Positions 14,441 through 36,008 of a DNA stretch of 64,000 bases are shown here, piece after piece. The notes beneath the pieces are model-generated. The model saw only the letters and a list, made by a program, of their open reading frames with translations, made no database searches and was not told the origin of the DNA. A program made the translations under genes and the position numbers. The stretch lies in IMG/VR virus record IMGVR_UViG_3300010354_000001, positions 32,001 through 96,000 of that record; one strand, given 5' to 3'. Position 1 is the first letter of the stretch; every line of letters begins with the position of its first letter. The DNA is from a virus.

Positions 14441-14515
14441 TGGCACGTTCTGAAGGACTTGAACCTTCTACTAAGGTTTTGGAGACCTTTGTTTTACTAG
14501 GTAAACTAAGAACGC
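14441..14515 (-). tRNA. tRNA-Trp(CCA)
   Basis: Anticodon arm AAGGT-CTCCAAA-ACCTT, T loop GTTCAAG, encoded CCA. Confidence 0.9.
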
Positions 14516-14519
14516 ATTA

Positions 14520-14594
14520 TGGAGCGAACGGTGGGACTTGAACCCACAACCAACAGTTTGGAAAACTGCTACTCTGCCGTTGAGCTACATTCGC
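14520..14594 (-). tRNA. tRNA-Gly(TCC)
   Basis: GCAGT-TTTCCAA-ACTGT, U73, encoded CCA. Confidence 0.92.
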
Positions 14595-19399: not shown

Positions 19400-20879
19400 T
19401 TAGTTAGACTTAGCTAACCTAATCCAGGTATTTACCTCCGCCATTTCTGCAGAAGTGAACTCTATGAATTTTATACCCATCTGCTCAGCTTCTTGGGTAG
19501 TGGCTTTAATTTTAGCTAGTAAAGCTAAATTAGCTTTAGTAGCTTTAGTAGCTCTTATTAAGTTTAGCACTGCATTTTTTCCCATAATTTACTTCTTTTA
19601 GATTTGTTTTAGCTGTTTACTCAGCTCTCTATACTTCTTATATTAGCATATAAAATTAAGCTATGGTTAAGAACATGCTAATAAATCGTTAAAAGATTAT
19701 AAGGATTTTTTTAAAGAAATTATAGTCTCCTTTAGTTCTAACAGTTTAGATAAAGGTAATTTTACTCGCACATAGTCTCCTAGATTATTAATAACAACTA
19801 GAATATATTTATCTAGGTCTTTAATATCTTCTAGCTCCCTGTCACAAGAGCTAAAATCGGGAGTCCCGTCCCAATTATTAACATAGGCCAGATGGTCATC
19901 TATTAGATCAAATAACCTATCTTCCTCCGAACCTTCATAATCGCTAATACTAGCGATTCTATCGGGGGAGACTTGCCGCTCTTTTGTCCCCTTGTATATA
20001 GTGTTAAATAACATTTTTTATTCTCCTTTACCTAGTTTTAAGATACTAGGATCTATTTTTAAGGGCCCGAGTTAGGGCCCCTGCTACTACATCTCTACTG
20101 CGATTAAATCGCTGAACCATACTCTCTCAGCAGGAGAATTTCTAACTACTCGGTTAGAATACACGTCATACGGCCGTATTATAGCAAACGTCCCCGTAAA
20201 TCCTACTAGTTTATACACTAGGCAACTTCCAGACTTTCTACATAATTTACTCATAATTTTTCAGCTCCTTTATACCTATAATATTAACACATAAAGTTAA
20301 TAAGTGGTTAAGAATATTTAAAAATATTCTTTTATTAACTTTATTTAATTTTCAAAAAAATTAGCCTGCTCTTTTACATGCCGCCTAAATAGTTTTTTGG
20401 CTTCTGTTAAACTATAAGCTGCATACCTTTTTTTATAAAATACCCCTTTATAATGGGTAGTTAAAATAATATCCCCGCTAGGAAATAATTTTTCTATATC
20501 TATTTTCATTTTGGCCTTTTACTGTTTGTTGAGTTTACCAGCTCTCTATACTATGCTATATTATTAAAATGGTATGCCTGGACTTATACATATACAATAT
20601 AACCAGTCTGCTGTATGCCACGCTGCTATAGTTAGGGCCATAGCTGCTAAGAATTGTACTAGTGTTATTTTGTTATCCATAGTTTTATTATTCCCTTTAT
20701 TTTAATATTATATTTTTGTATAAAGTACGTCCGTGTCCATCTTGAACATTACTCGGGATAGTTACCTGAGTTATCACGTAACCTAGCTTGACATGATTTT
20801 TAAGCATAGGTAGGTCATGATAACTATTAGTTAGTCCTATAACATGTGTTTCTTTTTTTAACGTATAATATTTTAGCAT
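19400..20879 (-). CDS. small hypothetical ORFs (19400-19585, 19697-20014, 20697-20879 and shorter ones)
   Basis: ORF track; RBS-like AAGGAG/AAGGG upstream of several. Confidence 0.5.
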
Positions 20880-25566: not shown

Positions 25567-26196
25567 CTAAACACCACCTTCTTTTGGGCGAAAATGTAGA
25601 CTTTTCCTGTCGTGCAATTTATACACATAGCAATGTTTTGGAGGTAATGTTATAGGAGTTAGTAATCCTTGTTCTAACTTCTCTCTGAGTCTTTTAACGA
25701 AAGGTTTATACTCCCCTTTGTGTTTAGTTCTTAAAGCTCTTGAATGGTAAGTTTTACCTGTTTCTGGATCTAAATATCCTTTGTCTTTACTACCTAAGCC
25801 TAAATACTCAAAGTTAGAAGCTTTGTAAATAATTCCTGTATGCCCATATAAGGGATCCGCATAAGATACTATTACTTTGATAGTAGGATCTGTTTGTTTA
25901 ATATGCTTTATACACTGGGCTATAACCCTACTCTCAGAATTTTTTGCAGTCTCGTCTACTAATACTAATCTCCGCAATTCTAAAACCTCATGCTCGTTCT
26001 GGGCGAAGCGTTTCCATGCCGTGGTAGACATAGCCCCAAACAGCACCGCTCCTACAAGATACCCTTCATGCTCTACTGCAAAAGAGTAGGATACTTTAAC
26101 TCCGTTAATACTGTGAGAGTAGTGTTTATTTTCAATAAAAGATTTAATCTCTGAAACCTTACACTCCCTTATGGTTAAATCTTTAGCTGGGATCAT
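25567..26196 (-). CDS. Mom-like GNAT-fold DNA modification protein
   Basis: HYSHS, LELRRLV, KNSESRVI, VSYADP..GHTGIIYKASNF. Confidence 0.75.
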   Translation of the reverse strand: MIPAKDLTIRECKVSEIKSFIENKHYSHSINGVKVSYSFAVEHEGYLVGAVLFGAMSTTAWKRFAQNEHEVLELRRLVLVDETAKNSESRVIAQCIKHIKQTDPTIKVIVSYADPLYGHTGIIYKASNFEYLGLGSKDKGYLDPETGKTYHSRALRTKHKGEYKPFVKRLREKLEQGLLTPITLPPKHCYVYKLHDRKSLHFRPKEGGV

Positions 26197-26422
26197 TCTA
26201 ATTTACAGAAAAAGGTAACTTAGTGCTATTATGCCCGCACCTAAAGCACCTAATATATAGTGTGTCTGTGAGTAATCTCCACCTGCCGCAGCATTTATTA
26301 TATCAGTTACCATAATCAAAGTAAACATTACTAAAGATACTGTGTTAAAAGTACTCATTTATTTCCTCCCTCTATTTCTTCCTTTACTCTCTCGAATCTA
26401 TCTATTGTGTAATCTATTTCTA

Positions 26423-26911
26423 TCATGTGCCTACCTTCTCCTTACCGCCTAAACTAATCATCCGTATCTCCCAAGTATCCTGTAACTTCATTACTACTGA
26501 ACCAAAAGCAGGAGACTTGGCATTAGCCCCTATACCACTTTCAAACTTTATACGCCCATCTGGAATGAACAACTTGCCCCCTCTAGACATGCCGCAAAAC
26601 CTTTTAGTGGTTATGAACTCTATAGGAAATAATACATATATTTCATTCTTTGCTTGGTTGTAGGTTTCCCAAGCTTTTTCCATAAATTTATGTTTGATGG
26701 TAAATGGTGGATTTATCCAAATTCTTTTATATGTCGTCCAGTCCTTACTTAAGCCATCAGTGTCTATAGTGTCGAAGTTTTCAATCCCGAACTCTTTAGC
26801 TTTCTCTTTAGTGGTAGCTGGATCATAATCAAATACACCAAACTGATCAACAAACCATTTAGGCGTATACCACTCATTATTTTTTGTAAACTCTACTAAA
26901 CCTTTAGCCAT
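26423..26911 (-). CDS. phage-type DNA N6-adenine methyltransferase
   Basis: EWYTP, FDYDPA, DGL..W, WINPPF, GRIKF. Confidence 0.82.
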   Translation of the reverse strand: MAKGLVEFTKNNEWYTPKWFVDQFGVFDYDPATTKEKAKEFGIENFDTIDTDGLSKDWTTYKRIWINPPFTIKHKFMEKAWETYNQAKNEIYVLFPIEFITTKRFCGMSRGGKLFIPDGRIKFESGIGANAKSPAFGSVVMKLQDTWEIRMISLGGKEKVGT

Positions 26912-27602
26912 AATATTCTGCCTCGTCTGCCAATAAATCTGCCCTTCTTACTGTTATTAGAAAATCATTAATTAACTCTAAGTCCGCCTTTTTATCGTTT
27001 ACATAATCCCTAAAGTCTAATAATAAACCTTCATAGTAATTACATAAATTTACTGCTTCTCCTTGAGTATAGTCTTTAGCTTTTCTTATGTCAAGTAAAT
27101 TTTTATAAACTTCTGTACCTTTAAAGTCAATTATATACTCGCCGTGTCTTAAGTAATGCAGTGCTTGGTAAGTTACTCTAAGCCATGCAGAGGTATATTT
27201 TCTAGCTTTCCTGTCTTTATTTAGATCCCAGTCTCCATGCAATAATTTATTTTTTTGATTCTTAGCGTACCCTAAATGAGAGTTAAGAAGAAGTTTTGGG
27301 TTTATTATGTGTGGTAGCAAGTTTCTTAATACAGTGCCAAAATATGTTTTAACTTCTATTGGGGCGACAAACACCTCTAAAATGGTAGGGTTATTTTGTA
27401 GGGCCATAGATAAGAAATGTTTTAACTCCCATGCTGTATTATCTTCGTTGCCTTCTATCCAGCTAGTGTTTGCTGGTTTATTGCCTACGCTTAATAATTC
27501 TCTTGTAGGAGTTGTGAATACTGCTCTATAGTCATAGTCACTGTTTTCATCAGCTAACCCATGTGCCCTAGAGCCTACTAATACTTTTAATATTTCTGTC
27601 AT
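26904..27602 (-). CDS. DNA pol beta-superfamily nucleotidyltransferase (RlaP/YcgL-like)
   Basis: GSRAHGL..ENSDYDYR, NNPTILE, GYAKNQ. Confidence 0.8.
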   Translation of the reverse strand: MTEILKVLVGSRAHGLADENSDYDYRAVFTTPTRELLSVGNKPANTSWIEGNEDNTAWELKHFLSMALQNNPTILEVFVAPIEVKTYFGTVLRNLLPHIINPKLLLNSHLGYAKNQKNKLLHGDWDLNKDRKARKYTSAWLRVTYQALHYLRHGEYIIDFKGTEVYKNLLDIRKAKDYTQGEAVNLCNYYEGLLLDFRDYVNDKKADLELINDFLITVRRADLLADEAEYYG

Positions 27603-28825
27603 GTGTCGTTCTCTAATGTCTCTGCTAGTATCTGTTTAAGTTCCTCTATCTCTTGTTTGAGCTTTTCGTTTTCCTTAGCTACTATACTTTCCTTGTAGCT
27701 CTTTAGCTTAAAGTCAAATAGATACCTTAATGTCTGCCAAGGGGATATCTCCCACGCTTTTTTAATGTTCTCGATTTGTCTTCGGATACGAGTATTTGTT
27801 ATCTTCTGGCAAGTCACAAGCCACTCAATACCGTCCGAGCCTTCGTGTGTTAACTCGTAAACCTCGCAGTCAAAGGCTTTGCAAATGCGAATTAATTCTT
27901 CACACTCCTCGTTGCCTAAAGTCTTTAATTTTTGTCCTGTTTCTTTTGCGTTTACGCAATTACTTTTATAGTTTTGTATATCTTCAAATGTTATTTTTTC
28001 CATATACTGCCTCCTAAAAACTCAAATAATTTACTCAAGAGACTTTTTTGCTCTTTCTGCTCTGAGGCAGCATTAACACCGCTAACGTACATACCCACTA
28101 CATCTTTTATAGTGACTGGAGTCCACCGATACCTGTATGCCCTAATGTTTTCATAAAACTGTTCGTCTGAGATTTCTTTTGCTCCTTCATAGATTAAGGG
28201 ACTCTCTACGCCAAAGTGTATAAATAATTCATTACCTCTTTCGACAAGTATGTATCTTACTAAGTAAATCTGGTTCTTAGTGTACTCAGATAGCTTCAGT
28301 AGCGATGTGTGAAAATGTATTTCTTGTCCTGTGGTTAGTGTAACTTCGCTATCTAGAGAGTATGTTGTATACTTGTTTAACTCCTCTTTATATAAGTAGT
28401 CTTTAATTGCTTCAGCTACATAATCAACAGCTCCAAAAACAGCTATAGTATTAACTCCTCTAGGAAATATTAATTCTCCCGATAAAGTAATTTTAGTAGG
28501 GAACTTATCCTGATTAATATTGCGAACTACTGGGGGAGTTAGTTTGTTTAAGTTTATACTTTTTAATTTTTTAGTTTTCATGGGGTTCCTCTCTGCTTGC
28601 AAGCAACTTGTCTGTAGCTACAGTATTTCTAGAAACCAGATCCCTCAAAGAGAGTATTTCTTTTTTGTTGTTACTTAACTCATAATATAAAGTGGATCCG
28701 AATCTAGGCACTAGAAAGTTATCTTCCTCTGTTATGTAGATAGGGTTGCCCTCCATTACGAAAGACAGTTCATACTCCTTGACCTCTGCTTTATTTAAGA
28801 ATATTGTTTGTTTAATTTTGTGCAT
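27599..28825 (-). CDS. three hypothetical ORFs (27599-28003, 27991-28602, 28571-28825)
   Basis: ORF track. Confidence 0.6.
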
Positions 28826-28880
28826 TTGTTTCCTTTTAGTTAAATGTTAGCACACTTTGGATTTTTTTGCTAAAAAATAC

Positions 28881-28937
28881 AGCAGGCATCAACGTGTTAG
28901 ATTAAAAGTCTAGTGTTGTTTTTGCTGTGAGCCTGCT
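28881..28937 (-). ncRNA. mini Y-like RNA carrying a tRNA-Lys(UUU) anticodon stem-loop
   Basis: AGCAGGC/GCCTGCT stem + TC + ACAGCAA; CAAC/GTTG; TAGA-CTTTTAA-TCTA. Confidence 0.65.
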
Positions 28938-28968
28938 TAGTTAATGACGTTAGCTAGACTAACAATAT

Positions 28969-29046
28969 AGCTACTGGTAGGATTTGAACCTACGACCTCC
29001 TCGCCCATAAAATATGCAAGGTGCTCTACCTCTGAGCTACAGTAAC
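28969..29046 (-). ncRNA. tRNA-like RNA with non-canonical elongated anticodon arm
   Basis: GTTACTG/CAGTAGC acceptor, TAGCTCAGAGGTAGAGC D arm, GTAGG-TTCAAAT-CCTAC T arm; anticodon arm CCTTGC-ATATTTTATGG-GCGAGG. Confidence 0.75.
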
Positions 29047-29054
29047 GTGATTAC

Positions 29055-29172
29055 ACCAGTCATTTTGTCTACAGACGCCTTACCTCTTGGCTACCCTTGT
29101 TTTACGAAGGAGTTGGATTTGAACCAACGATACTCTGTCCCTAATAGATGTTTTTTGTGCTGTTAGACTGGT
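29055..29172 (-). ncRNA. YrlA-like Y RNA (permuted tRNA-like domain)
   Basis: ACCAGTC/GACTGGT stem + ACAGCA; T arm before closed acceptor, then D arm TAGCCAAGAGGTAAGGC. Confidence 0.75.
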
Positions 29173-29182
29173 TGAGTGAGAC

Positions 29183-29310
29183 TGAAGACATTTTGTTGTT
29201 TTTTGATTTGCCTTACCGATCGGCCACCACTCCTTGCGGAATGGGTTGGATTTGAACCAACATACACATCTTGTTTTTGTTTTTGTTTGTTGTGTTGCTG
29301 TCTGTCTTCA
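29183..29310 (-). ncRNA. YrlA-like Y RNA (permuted tRNA-like domain)
   Basis: TGAAGACA/TGTCTTCA stem + ACAGCAA; GTTGG-TTCAAAT-CCAAC; CCATTCC-GCAA-GGAGTGG; TGGCCGATCGGTAAGGC. Confidence 0.78.
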
Positions 29311-29318
29311 AAGAGAAT

Positions 29319-29432
29319 CGGACTTGACTCTCAGCTTCGCTGAGGGAGATTATCGGCTTCACAGAGTCTGCTTTTACTCTCGTATGAGTAAGTAGTCTTA
29401 TTAACTCTCCACCTACGCCCATCCTAGGCGTA
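29319..29432 (-). ncRNA. orphan TnpB omega-RNA-like scaffold (copy 3)
   Basis: Near-identical to 55403-55492 and homologous to tnpB 3' end; terminal hairpin replaced by CTCAGC-GAA-GCTGAG; ends AAGTCCG. Confidence 0.7.
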
Positions 29433-30884
29433 TGTTTTAATTATAGCATACTTTTCATCATTTACTATATTTTCCACTAAAGATTCTGGATTTGCATCAG
29501 CTTCTAATACATATTTCATCACTGAAGGTGAGTACCCAGAAATTAACTGAACATTTTTATCTTTACTTAAAGCTGGCATGTTTCCTGTACGCCCACTGAC
29601 GTTCCAAAATACTACTTTAGGCATAGCATAGCCTGAAGCTCTAAATAAATCTTGTATATGCTCAAAGTTGGTTTTGCTTTTATTGGCTACATCAAACTCC
29701 ATATCAGAGATTATTAATATGCTTTTAGGCATTTCTGATTCTGGAGAATTATGCTGTTTAGCTCTTCCTAGTAATAACTCAAATACTTTAGTTAAATCAG
29801 TGTTATAGCTCCAATTAGCCTTTCTTAAAGCATCTACTTTTTCAAGTAAAGTGCCTTCAGGAATAGTAAAGAAAGCTGGATTCTCACTGAAAGTGCAAAC
29901 TAAGTTTTTAAAGTCTCCTACTAATCTTTCTGCTAAATAGATACCTAGTCCGACAGATACATCCATAGGTTCTCCTGCCATAGACCCAGATACATCACAC
30001 ACTACCAGAGTAGATGATGCTTTTCCTTGTAGATAGTCTGGTAAAGCTTTCCATTGGGCATCTGCGGTTGCAGGATCTTTATCAGTAGCTTTGACTAGAT
30101 CAGAAGGAAATAATACTGAGCTATTTATCTTCTTTTCTCCTTTAACTACTGCTTCTAAATACCCGTTAAACCTCTCCTCTGAGTGTTTTCTGAACGCTTT
30201 AGAGTAGTTGCTCATGGCCTTGGAAGGAACATGCTCGTATTTTATCTCATCCCACTTCTTAGCTGACATTTGAGTCTCTACTACTTTAGTATTAGCTGCT
30301 AGTTTCTGTCTGTAAGCTTTCGGCCCGCCTGCCTGCTCTGTTAGTTTCTTTCTTAGCTTAGGATATTTTTTAGACTTCTCCCTAGGTAGCCACTTGAAAA
30401 GTAAACTGTCAGTTGCTTCGCCAAAAGCTTCTTGTATATGTTTAAGAACTACAAGCTTAGTAAAATAGTGAGTAGTATCGCTCTCGTAGAGATCGAATAG
30501 ATAATCCCATCTTGTGAAAGAGACTATGTTGTCTACGTTATTGATAATCGCACTATCGCTGACTACTCTTACTATATCCTCTGAGTTTATCTGGCATTGG
30601 GTAGTTTCGTGTAAAGTAGCTAAGTAGTTAAGGGCCAGTTTAAAAAATCTTCTCTCTCCTAGTCCTCCCCGAATAGCTCCTGCCCAAAAAATTAACTTAA
30701 TAGTCTTTTCTCTGTCGAATTTGTAAGCTTTATCTATTAATGCAGTTATATCTACATCGCTCATCTTCCTAGAGGCTCCTGCTAGGAACACAAAATCCAC
30801 TAAGGGGTTGAAAGATGATTTATTTGTTACAGCACCATTGTCTGTGTGGCCTGTGTTAGTTAAATTTTTGATTAGATTATTCAT
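29424..30884 (-). CDS. Ro60/TROVE-like VWA protein (DUF2828 type)
   Basis: TDNGA, IRGGLGER, RWD, KWLPRE, VPSKAM, MIDAS CDVSGSM, ISDMEFD, VFWNV, SGYSP. Confidence 0.85.
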   Translation of the reverse strand: MNNLIKNLTNTGHTDNGAVTNKSSFNPLVDFVFLAGASRKMSDVDITALIDKAYKFDREKTIKLIFWAGAIRGGLGERRFFKLALNYLATLHETTQCQINSEDIVRVVSDSAIINNVDNIVSFTRWDYLFDLYESDTTHYFTKLVVLKHIQEAFGEATDSLLFKWLPREKSKKYPKLRKKLTEQAGGPKAYRQKLAANTKVVETQMSAKKWDEIKYEHVPSKAMSNYSKAFRKHSEERFNGYLEAVVKGEKKINSSVLFPSDLVKATDKDPATADAQWKALPDYLQGKASSTLVVCDVSGSMAGEPMDVSVGLGIYLAERLVGDFKNLVCTFSENPAFFTIPEGTLLEKVDALRKANWSYNTDLTKVFELLLGRAKQHNSPESEMPKSILIISDMEFDVANKSKTNFEHIQDLFRASGYAMPKVVFWNVSGRTGNMPALSKDKNVQLISGYSPSVMKYVLEADANPESLVENIVNDEKYAIIKTYA

Positions 30885-31700: not shown

Positions 31701-32197
31701 CTCATCGCCTCCTCGAATTTTTTTCTAAGCTTTTCTGGGTAGTTTTTGTGACACCATGCAAAGGCTTCGAATATTGATTCAAGTTTACTGCTTCTATTTG
31801 GATCTAGGTCGAGAATCATCCAAGTCCTTAGATCGTTTATGAGCCAAGTTGAGCCACTTAGATCAGGTAAGCACGCTTCAAGTGCAGCTTTGGGGATTAT
31901 TGGGATAAGTGGGGTATACTCATCCCCCATCTTGTAATTTTTAAGGTCGGCTAAAGCTTCCTCCAAATCAATGGTGTAGGTATTTAACAAATCTACCTCA
32001 TGGTGCGTCAGCATGTCAGTGAGTGTTGGGTTGACTAAATGTTCACCAAGTCTAAACCACTTTACAATTTTACCTTTGCTGGGATCACCGTTTGGAGGAT
32101 AAAAATTATGCTGCCATTCAGTACAAATTTCAGTAAAATCATATCCAAGCTCAAGTATTTTTTTAGACTCTTCGTAAGTACAGTTAAGTTCAATCAT
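31697..32197 (-). CDS. MIELN-family paralog 2
   Basis: Shared blocks with 16145-16630. Confidence 0.75.
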   Translation of the reverse strand: MIELNCTYEESKKILELGYDFTEICTEWQHNFYPPNGDPSKGKIVKWFRLGEHLVNPTLTDMLTHHEVDLLNTYTIDLEEALADLKNYKMGDEYTPLIPIIPKAALEACLPDLSGSTWLINDLRTWMILDLDPNRSSKLESIFEAFAWCHKNYPEKLRKKFEEAMR

Positions 32198-33839: not shown

Positions 33840-36008
33840 TTAAAATATTGATACCGATTGTAAAATTTGGCTCCAAACCTTCTCTACAAAATTACCTCCT
33901 TCTAAACCTTCAAACTGTTCTTGTGTGTAAGTCAGTAAGAAGCTTTTAGTTATTGGTAGATCGTTATACTTAGTTAATACTTCTTCTCTAGAAATCTTAT
34001 CCCAGTTGCCTTTTTTATATATCTCTCTAAGCACTCTAATGTCTTTATAGATGGGAAGTTTAACTTTTAGAAACTGACCTTCAGAATCTTCTAAGACGAA
34101 ACCTTCGTCTAGCGAGTCTTTGGATCTCTCTATTAGCTTAGTCAATTCTGTAACAGTATTAGCTGTAAATACTTTAGTCTTAGGCTTAACTCCTATTGCT
34201 TTTGCTATAGATTTTACTTTCTCATAAGGCTCCCTGATAAACTCTAAGGTGTTATGCACTATATCCAGTAATACTAGATGAGCTTTGTCGTACTTGACTA
34301 TATGTGGATCTCGCACTGGGTCTATAACCTCAAACACAAAAGTAGTATTGGTGTCTTTAACATACTTAGTTAAGAACTCTACATCTAAGGTAGCGTGCAA
34401 AATGTCTTTTAAGTATTCTGAAAAATCAGAACTAGGGGAAGTTTTAGAAGTTATAAATAATTTATCTTTTTCATGATCGTAACTAACTAAGCCTAAAAAA
34501 CCATTCTCTTTAGTAAATACTTGTACTGGGTAAGTTAAGCTAGTTAGTTCTAATCCACGCTCTCCTAGATTAAAGAACTTCTCGTATCCTCTGGCTACTA
34601 ATTTATTAGTTTTGTTGTTTATGAATAATCCTCTTGTTTTTATAGTTACTGAATCCCAAGATTTATCATAAAAGGCTTTTCTGGAAAAAGAATAAGAGTC
34701 TATATGATCGTATGTTTTCTTATTTATAAGTTTGCGATTTATATAGCTCTCTAAACTTTTTAGGAACTCTGGAATATTCTCCTCTTTGCTCATAGGTGCT
34801 TTTGGGTTGTGGTATTTGATTATCTCTTGCCTATTTACATCATAAACTGAAAGATATCCTCCATGCTCTACAGAAGACTCTAAGCATACTGCACCATAAT
34901 CAGTTATATAGCTATCATTACTCATGTTTCTGTGTCCGAATACTTGAGTAAAGCAAGTAAGTTCAGAACTGTGCCCATGGGGGTATAATTCCCTACCTAA
35001 ACGCATATTTATACCTTTAGGGGTATAGTTATAGCCTTTTACCCCAGTCCACAAGTGTGCTGAAGGTTTTAATACTATATCGTAGAAATTCTCTAGGTTC
35101 TGTTTCGTATCTACCCCAGCGTGAGTCACCAATATATTATTTCCCTCCTCTAACTGGACTACACAAGCATCGTATAGTTTCTTTAGGAAATCTCTTATAG
35201 ATTTTTTAGTTATCCCTGCTATTTTAGGTAGTGTTACGTTATTAAATGTACCTGATCTTGCTTTCTTGCCCATACAGTAGTCTCTTAGATGTAGTTCGTG
35301 ATTCCCCATTAATAGAGTTACGTTAGGCTTATCTGCTAATTCCATCATTCTGCGAAGCACGTAATTCTCATCATCGCCACGATCTAAGTAGTCTCCTACA
35401 AAAACGTAATGAGTACTATCATCAAATTCACTTAAAAGTTTTTCTAGAGGTTTTCTACATCCCTGTATGTCGCCTACTATTAAAACCTTAATACTGTGCC
35501 TTTCGTACCTTATGCAAGGAATAAACCTGTTGGTCAAAAAATATGTATACAGAGTTTCTTTTAGAGTTTCCCCCTTAATGTGGTTATGATTATTTACAGC
35601 CTCATACCTTTCTTTCTGCCTATTTACCACTGATTCAGGAACGCTGTGTATTCCTCTAGTGGTATTATCTACCAGTGGAGTATTCCCAAAATCTAATACT
35701 AGAGTGTCATATAAATAGTTATCAGCTAATTCTTTAAACGGCTTCATGTCACTTTCTTTAGTGAATGTTGCATCTAATATAATTAGCTGCCCTTCATGCA
35801 TTCTATATTCTACAGCTTCTTTAACTATAGCCCAGATAGATTTATCCATTCCCTGAGAGATAGTAGTTCTATCTAGTTCTACGTTATGTGTTACCCCTGC
35901 TACTGCATGTCTTATTTTATCAGGGCTTATTGTGTAGTCCTCATAGCCTTTAACGTAAGTGCTTTTACCTGTGCCTGAGACACCTCTTAAAAATATTAAT
36001 AGTCTCAT
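33840..36008 (-). CDS. polynucleotide kinase + metallophosphatase + RNA ligase fusion (Pnkp-like end-healing/sealing enzyme)
   Basis: P-loop GVSGTGKST; GDIQG, GDYLDRG, GNHE; RGYEKFFN, KENG, EGFV, KVK. Confidence 0.88.
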   Translation of the reverse strand: MRLLIFLRGVSGTGKSTYVKGYEDYTISPDKIRHAVAGVTHNVELDRTTISQGMDKSIWAIVKEAVEYRMHEGQLIILDATFTKESDMKPFKELADNYLYDTLVLDFGNTPLVDNTTRGIHSVPESVVNRQKERYEAVNNHNHIKGETLKETLYTYFLTNRFIPCIRYERHSIKVLIVGDIQGCRKPLEKLLSEFDDSTHYVFVGDYLDRGDDENYVLRRMMELADKPNVTLLMGNHELHLRDYCMGKKARSGTFNNVTLPKIAGITKKSIRDFLKKLYDACVVQLEEGNNILVTHAGVDTKQNLENFYDIVLKPSAHLWTGVKGYNYTPKGINMRLGRELYPHGHSSELTCFTQVFGHRNMSNDSYITDYGAVCLESSVEHGGYLSVYDVNRQEIIKYHNPKAPMSKEENIPEFLKSLESYINRKLINKKTYDHIDSYSFSRKAFYDKSWDSVTIKTRGLFINNKTNKLVARGYEKFFNLGERGLELTSLTYPVQVFTKENGFLGLVSYDHEKDKLFITSKTSPSSDFSEYLKDILHATLDVEFLTKYVKDTNTTFVFEVIDPVRDPHIVKYDKAHLVLLDIVHNTLEFIREPYEKVKSIAKAIGVKPKTKVFTANTVTELTKLIERSKDSLDEGFVLEDSEGQFLKVKLPIYKDIRVLREIYKKGNWDKISREEVLTKYNDLPITKSFLLTYTQEQFEGLEGGNFVEKVWSQILQSVSIF

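Follow-up and report, generated by a model that had tools for sequence, protein, structure and literature searches.

Handle RNAs as probable partners of a Ro60-like DUF2828 protein encoded by phages

Ro60 proteins hold the stem of a Y RNA on their outer surface and RNA 3' ends in their central hole, and the locus described here raises the question of whether a viral protein of the same predicted shape has RNA partners of its own, and what such partners may carry. The locus lies in a stretch of 64,000 nucleotides (nt), positions 32,001 to 96,000 of the IMG/VR virus record IMGVR_UViG_3300010354_000001, which we call the window; it is part of a complete record of 113,974 base pairs (bp) with direct terminal repeats, and its sequence is present in 15 metagenome runs (aquatic, lake, river and other, most of them so labelled), with at least half of the sampled words found in each. 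In this window, which comes from a freshwater phage, a gene for a protein of the DUF2828 family is followed on the same strand by an array of small RNAs, three of which (RNA1, RNA2 and RNA4) share an element, the handle, made of a terminal stem, a short spacer and the motif ACAGCA. There is little doubt, in our judgement, that these three truly belong to a conserved family of RNAs that is tied to DUF2828, and the whole is probably best explained if they are the partner RNAs, i.e. the Y RNA counterparts, of the Ro60-like protein. From the gene onwards, the locus comprises:

29424-30884, minus strand: gene of the Ro60-like protein, 486 amino acids (aa), with Pfam DUF2828 in the N-terminal and DUF7788 in the C-terminal part, PHROG 850
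29311-29423, minus strand: spacer of 113 nt from the stop codon to RNA1, called RNA0, no handle
29183-29310, minus strand: RNA1, handle and body like a transfer RNA (tRNA), stem TGAAGAC/GTCTTCA, start TGAAGAC-AG-ACAGCAA
29055-29172, minus strand: RNA2, handle and tRNA-like body, stem ACCAGTC/GACTGGT, start ACCAGTC-TA-ACAGCAC
28969-29046, minus strand: tRNA-shaped RNA without handle, Ile-UAU according to ARAGORN, 53.6 bits with the Rfam tRNA model
28881-28937, minus strand: RNA4, short handle RNA with a run of U after its 3' end, stem AGCAGGC/GCCTGCT, start AGCAGGC-TC-ACAGCAA

A first-pass annotation of this DNA, made from the letters and their open reading frames (ORFs), had proposed four co-directional RNAs just downstream of a Ro60-like gene, three of them built of a 7-bp stem, 2 nt and ACAGCA(A/C), with stems that differ and nevertheless all pair; the four RNAs are indeed found on the minus strand at the positions given, and the three starts read exactly so in the sequence. 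In RNA1, RNA2 and RNA4 the 5' 7-mer is perfectly complementary to the final 7 nt and the three stems are unrelated in sequence, while an A/U-rich stretch stands before the 3' strand (ACAAAAU in RNA1 and in RNA2, GUUGAU in RNA4) and GU directly follows that strand in each. In RNA1 the motif ACAGCAA (29301-29295) leads through an A/C-rich linker to a body composed of a T arm (29261-29245), a closed acceptor-like stem with the loop GCAA (29244-29227) and a D arm (29224-29210), and RNA2 has the same design, with ACAGCAC at 29163-29157, a T arm at 29128-29112, a closed acceptor-like stem and a D arm. Both T arms read GUUGG-UUCAAAU-CCAAC and are followed by the loop-closed acceptor-like stem, U(G/A) and a D arm with GG in the D-loop; since the acceptor stem is closed, RNA1 and RNA2 are not tRNAs. 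RNA4 has its ACAGCAA at 28928-28922, an inner hairpin of 4 bp (TAGA-CUUUUAA-TCTA, 28912-28898) and a 3' end reading ...CUGU, and in an anticodon-loop scan its 7-nt loop CUUUUAA was identified as the loop sequence of tRNA-Lys(UUU). The handle-less RNA at 28969-29046 would have an anticodon loop of 11-13 nt, or alternatively a 6-bp stem with an extra mini-hairpin, instead of the normal 7-nt loop, and in its Rfam tRNA alignment 13 nt stand opposite 7 in the model; its role may be mimicry of a tRNA and not decoding. The 7-bp terminal stem of RNA2 is closed in the RNAfold structure. The single-sequence fold energies are ordinary (z -1.2 to -1.7), and the case for these RNAs is built on comparison and not on thermodynamics.

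The protein matches Pfam DUF7788 (1.4e-47) and DUF2828 (1.4e-36) as well as PHROG 850, 'RNA-binding protein' (7.7e-123); it has no match to Pfam TROVE (PF05731) at E≤0.01, a phmmer search against the PDB returned nothing at E≤10, and a profile made from 20 homologs reached the TROVE protein of phage phiLo only at E 0.11, in an alignment limited to the stretch of the metal ion-dependent adhesion site (MIDAS). A structural model calculated with AlphaFold2 (AF2) from the 20 homologs has a predicted local distance difference test score (pLDDT) of 81.7 and a predicted template modelling score (pTM) of 0.79, and when it was used to search the PDB, the top ten matches were all Ro60 proteins (Xenopus, human, Deinococcus Rsr and phiLo), aligned over the whole chain with Foldseek probability 1.0 and E of about 1e-7. 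Residues 8-465 of the model superimpose on Xenopus Ro60 (2i91/1yvp) with Z 20.2 over 411 residues and a root-mean-square deviation of 4.0, and on phiLo Ro60 (9kop) with Z 16; human, phiLo and Deinococcus Ro60 range from Z 12 to 19, and structures that have just a von Willebrand factor A (vWA) domain rank below Ro60, at about Z 10. The MIDAS residues D297, S299, S301, T362 and D394 (DxSxS ... T ... D) are invariant among the 20 homologs. As modelled, the protein has a Ro60-like fold, with a TROVE-like helical ring and a vWA domain with an intact MIDAS, whereas judged by sequence it falls outside the TROVE family; the 'TROVE/VWA gene' of the first-pass annotation is thus borne out as to fold and MIDAS, but not as to a Pfam TROVE match.

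DUF2828 proteins are widespread. A tblastn search identified them in 710 of 50,697 phage records, all at <40% identity, with Escherichia, Salmonella, Mycobacterium, Listeria, Vibrio, Staphylococcus, Campylobacter, Enterococcus and Bacillus as hosts and with Felix O1-like, A511-like, Campylobacter, Staphylococcus and Mycobacterium phages among the groups represented; a further 27 loci came from IMG/VR, and a search of a protein atlas returned DUF2828 clusters only, from viruses and bacteria. The phage records label the protein 'hypothetical', 'RNA-binding protein' or 'Ro-like' and never record a partner RNA or a function, and the literature searched mentions DUF2828 in plant or tardigrade work only and describes no CAGCAA RNA. 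The nearest protein relatives are merely 38% identical, which makes an analysis of covariation among close relatives impossible for these exact RNAs, and a near-identity DNA search of the phage collection with the locus found nothing.

Within the window, a strict handle pattern (a 7-bp stem with at most one G-U pair, 2-3 nt, CAGCA[AC], and a GU or UG tail after the 3' strand) has three matches in the 128 kb of both strands, compared to a mean of 0.5 in dinucleotide shuffles; they are RNA1, RNA2 and RNA4, clustered in 430 nt of a single strand. A loose pattern without the tail matches six times, as against 6.0 +/- 2.2 in shuffles, and because this is the chance rate, and because it lies inside a 415-aa ORF, an extra match at 60285-60235 was dismissed. 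The comparison was then extended to 27 non-redundant DUF2828 loci, where 58 handle matches were counted on the gene strand within 1 kb of the gene (1.15 per kb), 11 on the gene strand farther away (0.13 per kb) and 15 on the opposite strand (0.087 per kb). The handle is 13-fold denser near the gene on the gene strand, a strong enrichment of the kind whose absence would, according to the first-pass annotation, have spoken against its reading, and 23 of the 27 loci have at least one match within 1 kb. A test that is independent of stem-based selection gave the same picture: CAGCAA occurs 76 times in the 1-kb flanks, versus 4-19 times for permuted hexamers, and 56 of these 76 occurrences close a 7-bp stem, versus 15 of 101 control hexamers. 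Among the 58 matches there are 53 distinct stems; the median length is 68 nt, and the sequence before the 3' strand is rich in A, which makes up 52-71% at each of the five positions that directly precede the last nucleotide. CAGCA does not vary among 36 short and 14 long family members; RNA1 can be aligned with 12 RNAs and RNA4 with 27 short RNAs from other loci, and in the relatives the closed acceptor-like stem shows changes on both sides in six of its seven pairs. RNA1, RNA2 and RNA4 all fit the definition of the family, i.e. a stem of about 7 bp, 2-3 nt, CAGCA(A/C), an A-rich run and a GU-type tail, located at most about 1 kb from a DUF2828 gene and on its strand.

Covariance models point in the same direction. 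Model R1 was built from short members and includes RNA4 in its training set, so the 39.8 bits of RNA4 are obtained by construction; it misses RNA1 and RNA2 even without filters (at most 7.5 bits), because it penalizes long cargo, and a second model was therefore needed. Model R2 was built from eight tRNA-like RNAs, all of them from loci other than the window, whose proteins are 32-38% identical to the 486-aa protein; when applied to the 64 kb it found RNA1 (58.2 bits, E 1.1e-10) and RNA2 (56.7 bits, E 2.3e-10) as its top two matches, both at full length. The third match, at 41.7 bits, is a tandem of tRNA-Gly and tRNA-Trp genes at 14456-14591 with a broken terminal stem and no CAGCAA, an artefact of the tandem-tRNA kind described by Chen et al. 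2014 (PMC4201824). Across the 27 loci there were 42 matches to R2, every one on the gene strand, among them RNAs from outside the training set in L010, L027, phage wV8 and Cronobacter phage S13. In the whole genomes of wV8, A511, DuncansLeg and 6ec every R1 match lies within 1 kb of the DUF2828 gene, and in that of NCTC12673 there is no R1 match at E≤0.01. Among the candidates that were rejected are an R1 match at 20308-20335 of the window (12 bits, E 4.8) and RNA0, ruled out as a handle RNA by 3.7 bits with R1 and a fold z-score of 0.01; RNA0 does contain a 6-bp hairpin with a GAA loop (29345-29331) and a weak RAGATH-18-like match over the full model length (29351-29415, 21.8 bits, E 0.34), which is below the gathering threshold of 44.9.

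The motif and stem are found beside DUF2828 homologs in phages of Escherichia, Listeria, Mycobacterium, Staphylococcus, Campylobacter and Bacillus, often as tandem arrays next to the gene: six copies in locus L007, four in Escherichia phage wV8, two in Campylobacter phage NCTC12673, and three in each of Listeria phage A511, Staphylococcus phage 6ec and Mycobacterium phage DuncansLeg, while L011 has five or six. Since the DUF2828 gene usually lies within an array of tRNA genes on the same strand, it has to be considered that the handle could instead be a cassette that serves the processing or stability of transcripts from phage tRNA arrays, read by a host or phage RNase or by another protein, and that the Ro60-like protein would bind something else, e.g. 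damaged host RNAs. Such a cassette would agree with the alternation of handle RNAs and tRNAs in wV8, with the copies more than 1 kb away from the gene, and with the 3' UGU tail and the 5' UUU/UUA flank, which are possible cleavage signals. However, it would be expected to follow tRNA arrays, whereas T4, T5 and Bxz1, which are rich in tRNA genes, have neither a DUF2828 gene nor a handle match at E≤0.01 (a 19-bit R1 match in T4 with E 0.37 was dismissed). Conversely, in loci L003, L020 and L026 the handle RNAs adjoin the DUF2828 gene and ARAGORN finds no tRNA in the stretch examined, and in 6ec and DuncansLeg they directly border the gene, from which the sole annotated tRNA is separated by more than 1 kb. 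The cassette also leaves aside the likeness of the handle to the known Ro60 docking design, and we consider it improbable. The mycobacteriophage group of Bxz1 (ET08) is known to have a canonical Ro60 with YrlA.

A stem of free sequence that is combined with a single-stranded bulge motif is that docking design, and we think it likely that the DUF2828 protein docks on the handle in the manner of Ro60 on Y RNA. The docking site would comprise a free stem of about 7 bp, 2-3 nt that usually end in A, a single-stranded CAGCA(A/C), an A-rich run and a GU or UGU(U) tail, and it would replace the GNCGAA/CGAA stem-bulge site that is present in YrlA and in the Yrl RNAs of phiLo. The annotation from sequence had already supposed an element distinct from the classical Ro site and a set of interchangeable effector modules, and both suppositions agree with the comparison, in which CAGCA(A/C) is tied to DUF2828 and the cargo varies between copies and between phages.

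Four kinds of cargo were distinguished behind the handle. The first consists of short hairpins, often with anticodon-like loops of 7 nt (CUUGUAA five times, and also CUUUUAA and CUGAAAA), and the second is the body of T arm, closed acceptor and D arm; T arms found outside tRNAs in DUF2828 loci are parts of RNAs of this RNA1/RNA2 type, with (A)CAGCAA after the terminal stem. The third kind is a whole tRNA body (Rfam tRNA positions 7-64) that has the stem of the handle instead of an acceptor stem. The fourth occurs in Cronobacter phage S13 (KC954775.1, L036:4396-4638), where two annotated 'tRNAs' with open acceptor ends, a tRNA-Ser (121 nt) and a tRNA-OTHER (113 nt), each have a closed hairpin, the handle, inserted behind the D arm and then AUU-CAGCA(C/U), as in AAAAAC-GCAAACU-GACA-AGUUUGU-AUU-CAGCAC; they are a circular permutation of the RNA1/RNA2 design, with the handle stem at the place of the anticodon stem. 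Many family members, like RNA4, have no tRNA-like part at all. The exchangeable cargo in the window would then be a tRNA body lacking an open acceptor end in RNA1 and RNA2, and a copy of the tRNA-Lys(UUU) anticodon loop in RNA4. A contig of a related strain, from the run X18, matches 29100-29282 and 29027-29046 and has 126 other letters in place of the intervening 53 nt; as these comprise the 3' part of RNA2 and the spacer, the replacement suggests an exchange of cargo or of whole units among strains.

Three groups of known RNAs invite comparison. At gathering thresholds, Rfam models found only tRNA and transfer-messenger RNA in 20 loci, and no YrlA. YrlA RNAs have the module order T arm, closed acceptor stem, D arm and the 5' motif GNCGAA(N0-1)G (PMC4201824). 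The bacterial and phage Ro60 (Rsr) systems with YrlA share with the window a TROVE-like ring with vWA, small RNAs encoded alongside on the same strand, an end-joining terminal stem next to a short conserved motif on the 5' side and, in RNA1 and RNA2, the T/closed acceptor/D module. They differ in that the window RNAs carry CAGCA(A/C) and not GNCGAA and score below gathering, and in that the 486-aa protein lacks a Pfam TROVE match and resembles Ro60 (Rsr) in sequence marginally at best. The YrlA model RF02553, with which a comparison had been suggested, has no match at E≤10 in 28500-29700; on four relatives it gives 27-41 bits, compared to a gathering threshold of 69, and in three of the four the match covers the tRNA-like core only.

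The Ro60 of the Thermus phage phiLo with its RNAs Yrl1 and Yrl2 (9KOP, 9L5Y) is closer in setting, as a phage-encoded Ro60 shape with adjacent stem-bulge-stem RNAs, and is the sole phage case that we found with measured binding. The phiLo protein binds its two adjacent stem-bulge RNAs through a short CGAA motif, and together they bind the host polynucleotide phosphorylase (PNPase) and slow it (PMC12135203). In contrast to the window, the motif is CGAA, the protein belongs to the canonical TROVE type, and the RNAs have no described tRNA-like cargo and lie upstream of the gene, while the window has a downstream array of three handle RNAs and a tRNA-like RNA. Other literature on phages mentions TROVE proteins with a tRNA-like partner, in a survey of jumbo phages, and a mycobacteriophage 'Ro-like RNA-binding protein' that was moderately toxic in an overexpression screen.

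The third group, the Class I RNAs of dictyostelid social amoebae, is reported to be unique to Dictyostelia (Kjellin et al. 2021, PMC7919456). These RNAs, about 60 nt long, start with AAG and have a 6-bp stem of free sequence; directly behind its 5' strand comes an unpaired 11-nt motif with T3, C6, C9, A10 and A11, of which CAGCAA forms the end, then a variable remainder and finally CUGU, the C of which is paired with the 5' G. Their stems show many compensatory changes, a promoter element called DUSE (Dictyostelium upstream sequence element) lies about 60 nt upstream, and one direct binder is known, the RNA recognition motif protein Rnp1A (PMC7919456). RNA4 can be written as AAGCAGGC-UCA-CAGCAA ... 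GCCUGCUGU, and it has all five near-invariant motif positions as well as CUGU; RNA1 and RNA2, at twice the length, have the stem and the motif but end in CAGU and GUGU. Class I RNAs belong to eukaryotes and have the DUSE promoter, whereas the window array is phage-borne and operon-like, and the spacing from stem to CAGCAA is about 2 nt longer in Class I. At the level of sequence the resemblance of RNA4 to Class I is striking, while by score it stays outside the family: RF01414 has no match in the window at E≤10, and its best match, to a member in A511, has 23.1 bits (E 4.8) against a gathering threshold of 41.5. It may be speculated that a second and very widespread branch of Ro60 (DUF2828, in phages, bacteria and eukaryotes) docks on the CAGCAA handle, that Class I RNAs are eukaryotic members of the RNA family and Y-RNA-like partners of a DUF2828 protein, and that phages use cargo made of tRNA parts as bait or guides against host cleavage of tRNAs; taken as a whole we regard this as rather unlikely.

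Transcripts were sought in sequencing runs, four of which, labelled as RNA, contain parts of the window, one of them with the label 'probably DNA'. In the metatranscriptome X16, a contig of 226 nt (29168-29393) and one of 124 nt (29364-29432) match with zero mismatches, while there is no cover of the flanking genes and one 34-nt piece of the protein gene. In X17 the word depth is 85-1362 in the contigs over RNA1 and RNA0 and 2.5-6 in the gene contigs, which come from a more distant relative, and in X18 the contig over RNA1 and RNA2 has a depth of 184, compared to 3-7 for the gene. Contig cover thus reaches RNA0, RNA1 and part of RNA2, and the contigs show the pattern expected of stable small RNAs, which is supportive without being proof. 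Contigs of two RNA studies (X16 and X17) end at 29168, within the 5' strand of the RNA2 stem, and X17 contains adaptor letters at 29168 and near 29282, places that differ from the predicted RNA ends; the stop at 29168 may be a processing site, an assembly artefact, a branch between strains or the result of fragmentation, and we draw no conclusion from it. A simple scan found no promoter-like site on the minus strand between 28400 and 31300 and no terminator-like site directly after the array, the sole one on the minus strand being at 28654-28642, beyond the array and inside the next ORF. With no promoter-like site and no terminator before 28654, the simplest reading is transcription together with the gene followed by processing, and the array would most likely be cut in this way into stable small RNAs.

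Two genes of RNA repair are located on either side of the locus:

33840-36008, minus strand: single protein of 722 aa that joins a P-loop domain resembling polynucleotide kinase to a calcineurin-like phosphoesterase and an RNA ligase of the Rnl1 type, 3 kb upstream
26904-27602, minus strand: RlaP nucleotidyltransferase ('RNA repair pathway DNA polymerase beta family'), Pfam RlaP 5.5e-22, PHROG 388, 1.3 kb downstream of the array

The fusion comprises Pfam AAA_33 (residues 4-136), Metallophos (173-308) and RNA_lig_T4_1 (458-651), which is the domain order of bacterial RNA repair enzymes of the Pnkp type; no Hen1-like or other recognizable RNA-repair gene is present beside it, and the genome contains no RtcB gene. 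The RlaP gene belongs to a row of minus-strand genes at 25567-27602, downstream of the array, together with genes for a DNA modification protein of the Mom family and for a Dam methyltransferase. In Listeria phage A511 (L031:5336-6491), where three handle RNAs lie immediately upstream of the DUF2828 gene, an RtcB-type 'tRNA splicing ligase' and a metal-dependent phosphohydrolase are encoded 0.6-1.3 kb downstream of that gene.

The anticodon loop of tRNA-Lys(UUU), the one that RNA4 copies, is the target of the anticodon nuclease PrrC, which is countered by the repair system of T4. Repair by T4 Pnkp and Rnl1, or by bacterial Pnkp, has its counterpart in the kinase-phosphoesterase-Rnl1 fusion 3 kb from the array, but the T4 system includes no Ro-like protein or decoy RNA, and the functional link in the window is one of neighbourhood. 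The role in RNA repair or anti-defence that the first-pass annotation proposed is supported by the neighbouring repair genes only, and we put it forward tentatively: the particle could act in the control of tRNA damage, as bait for anticodon nucleases or as a platform for the neighbouring repair enzymes. During infection it would most likely work on or around tRNAs, either as bait for host enzymes that cut tRNAs or by recruiting enzymes that handle and repair them, jointly with the nearby kinase-phosphoesterase-ligase and RlaP proteins.

The partner RNAs could also be real and serve a different end, if the particle, like phiLo Ro60 with its Yrl RNAs and the bacterial machine of Rsr, Y RNA and PNPase, captured a host exoribonuclease of the PNPase type, or tRNA-modifying enzymes, and so redirected or blunted the decay of host RNA or controlled the turnover of phage tRNAs. 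The slowing of host PNPase in the phiLo case (PMC12135203) sets a precedent, tRNA-like modules of the YrlA type are substrates of tRNA enzymes (PMC4201824), and several loci have no RNA ligase or kinase in the stretch seen; yet the window gene stands between the ligase fusion and RlaP, the RtcB-type ligase of A511 is 1.3 kb away, and the recurrent loops CUUUUAA, CUUGUAA and CUGAAAA point to the anticodon and not to decay from the 3' end, so that capture of this sort has, in our estimate, a small chance of being right. That the elements are decayed or tandem tRNA genes which share ACAGCA by coincidence, as the 41.7 bits of the tandem tRNA-Gly/tRNA-Trp match and the chance frequency of the loose pattern might suggest, is hardly credible, given the broken stem and missing CAGCAA of that match, the closed acceptor stems of RNA1 and RNA2, the strict pattern that picks out just the three RNAs where 0.5 are expected, and the comparative data, in which motif and stem recur in the phages of six host genera.

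Several observations weigh against the reading of RNA1, RNA2 and RNA4 as partners of the DUF2828 protein. The link rests on gene neighbourhood, and the setting in tRNA arrays could favour such RNAs in other ways; four of the 27 loci have no strict match within 1 kb, 11 same-strand matches lie farther off, and the downstream position of the array in the window departs from that of most loci, where it precedes the gene (44 of the 58 matches are upstream). The second stem pair of RNA2 is C-G, versus G-C in 26 of 28 short family members, and almost no pairing connects the handle of RNA1 with its tRNA-like body. The covariation count on alignment A3 is inflated, as the sequences were chosen for pairing and the pair counts are consequently biased; it is replaced by the hexamer test. 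RNA4 and most of the tRNA-like RNA are uncovered by contigs of the RNA libraries, and assembled contigs give no ends, no strand and no safe ranking of levels. Finally, the literature searched contains no binding experiment on any DUF2828 protein.

What emerges is a variant of the Ro60/Y-RNA particle that is absent from Rfam and from the papers searched. It extends the principle of Ro60 and Y RNAs, i.e. one docking site with exchangeable modules, to a branch of proteins that sequence searches do not link to Ro60, and as the handle travels with the gene, it offers a testable ligand for the large DUF2828 family; several cultured model phages carry the system, which makes it readily testable. Handle RNAs account for many unannotated gaps in the tRNA regions of phages, and insertion of a handle is a possible reason for some over-long or 'OTHER' tRNA annotations in phage records. 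The likeness to Class I could offer a mechanistic lead for the Dictyostelium RNAs, and cargo in the form of tRNA bodies and anticodon loops, encoded next to repair enzymes, points to an undescribed layer in the contest between phages and the host defences that cut tRNAs.

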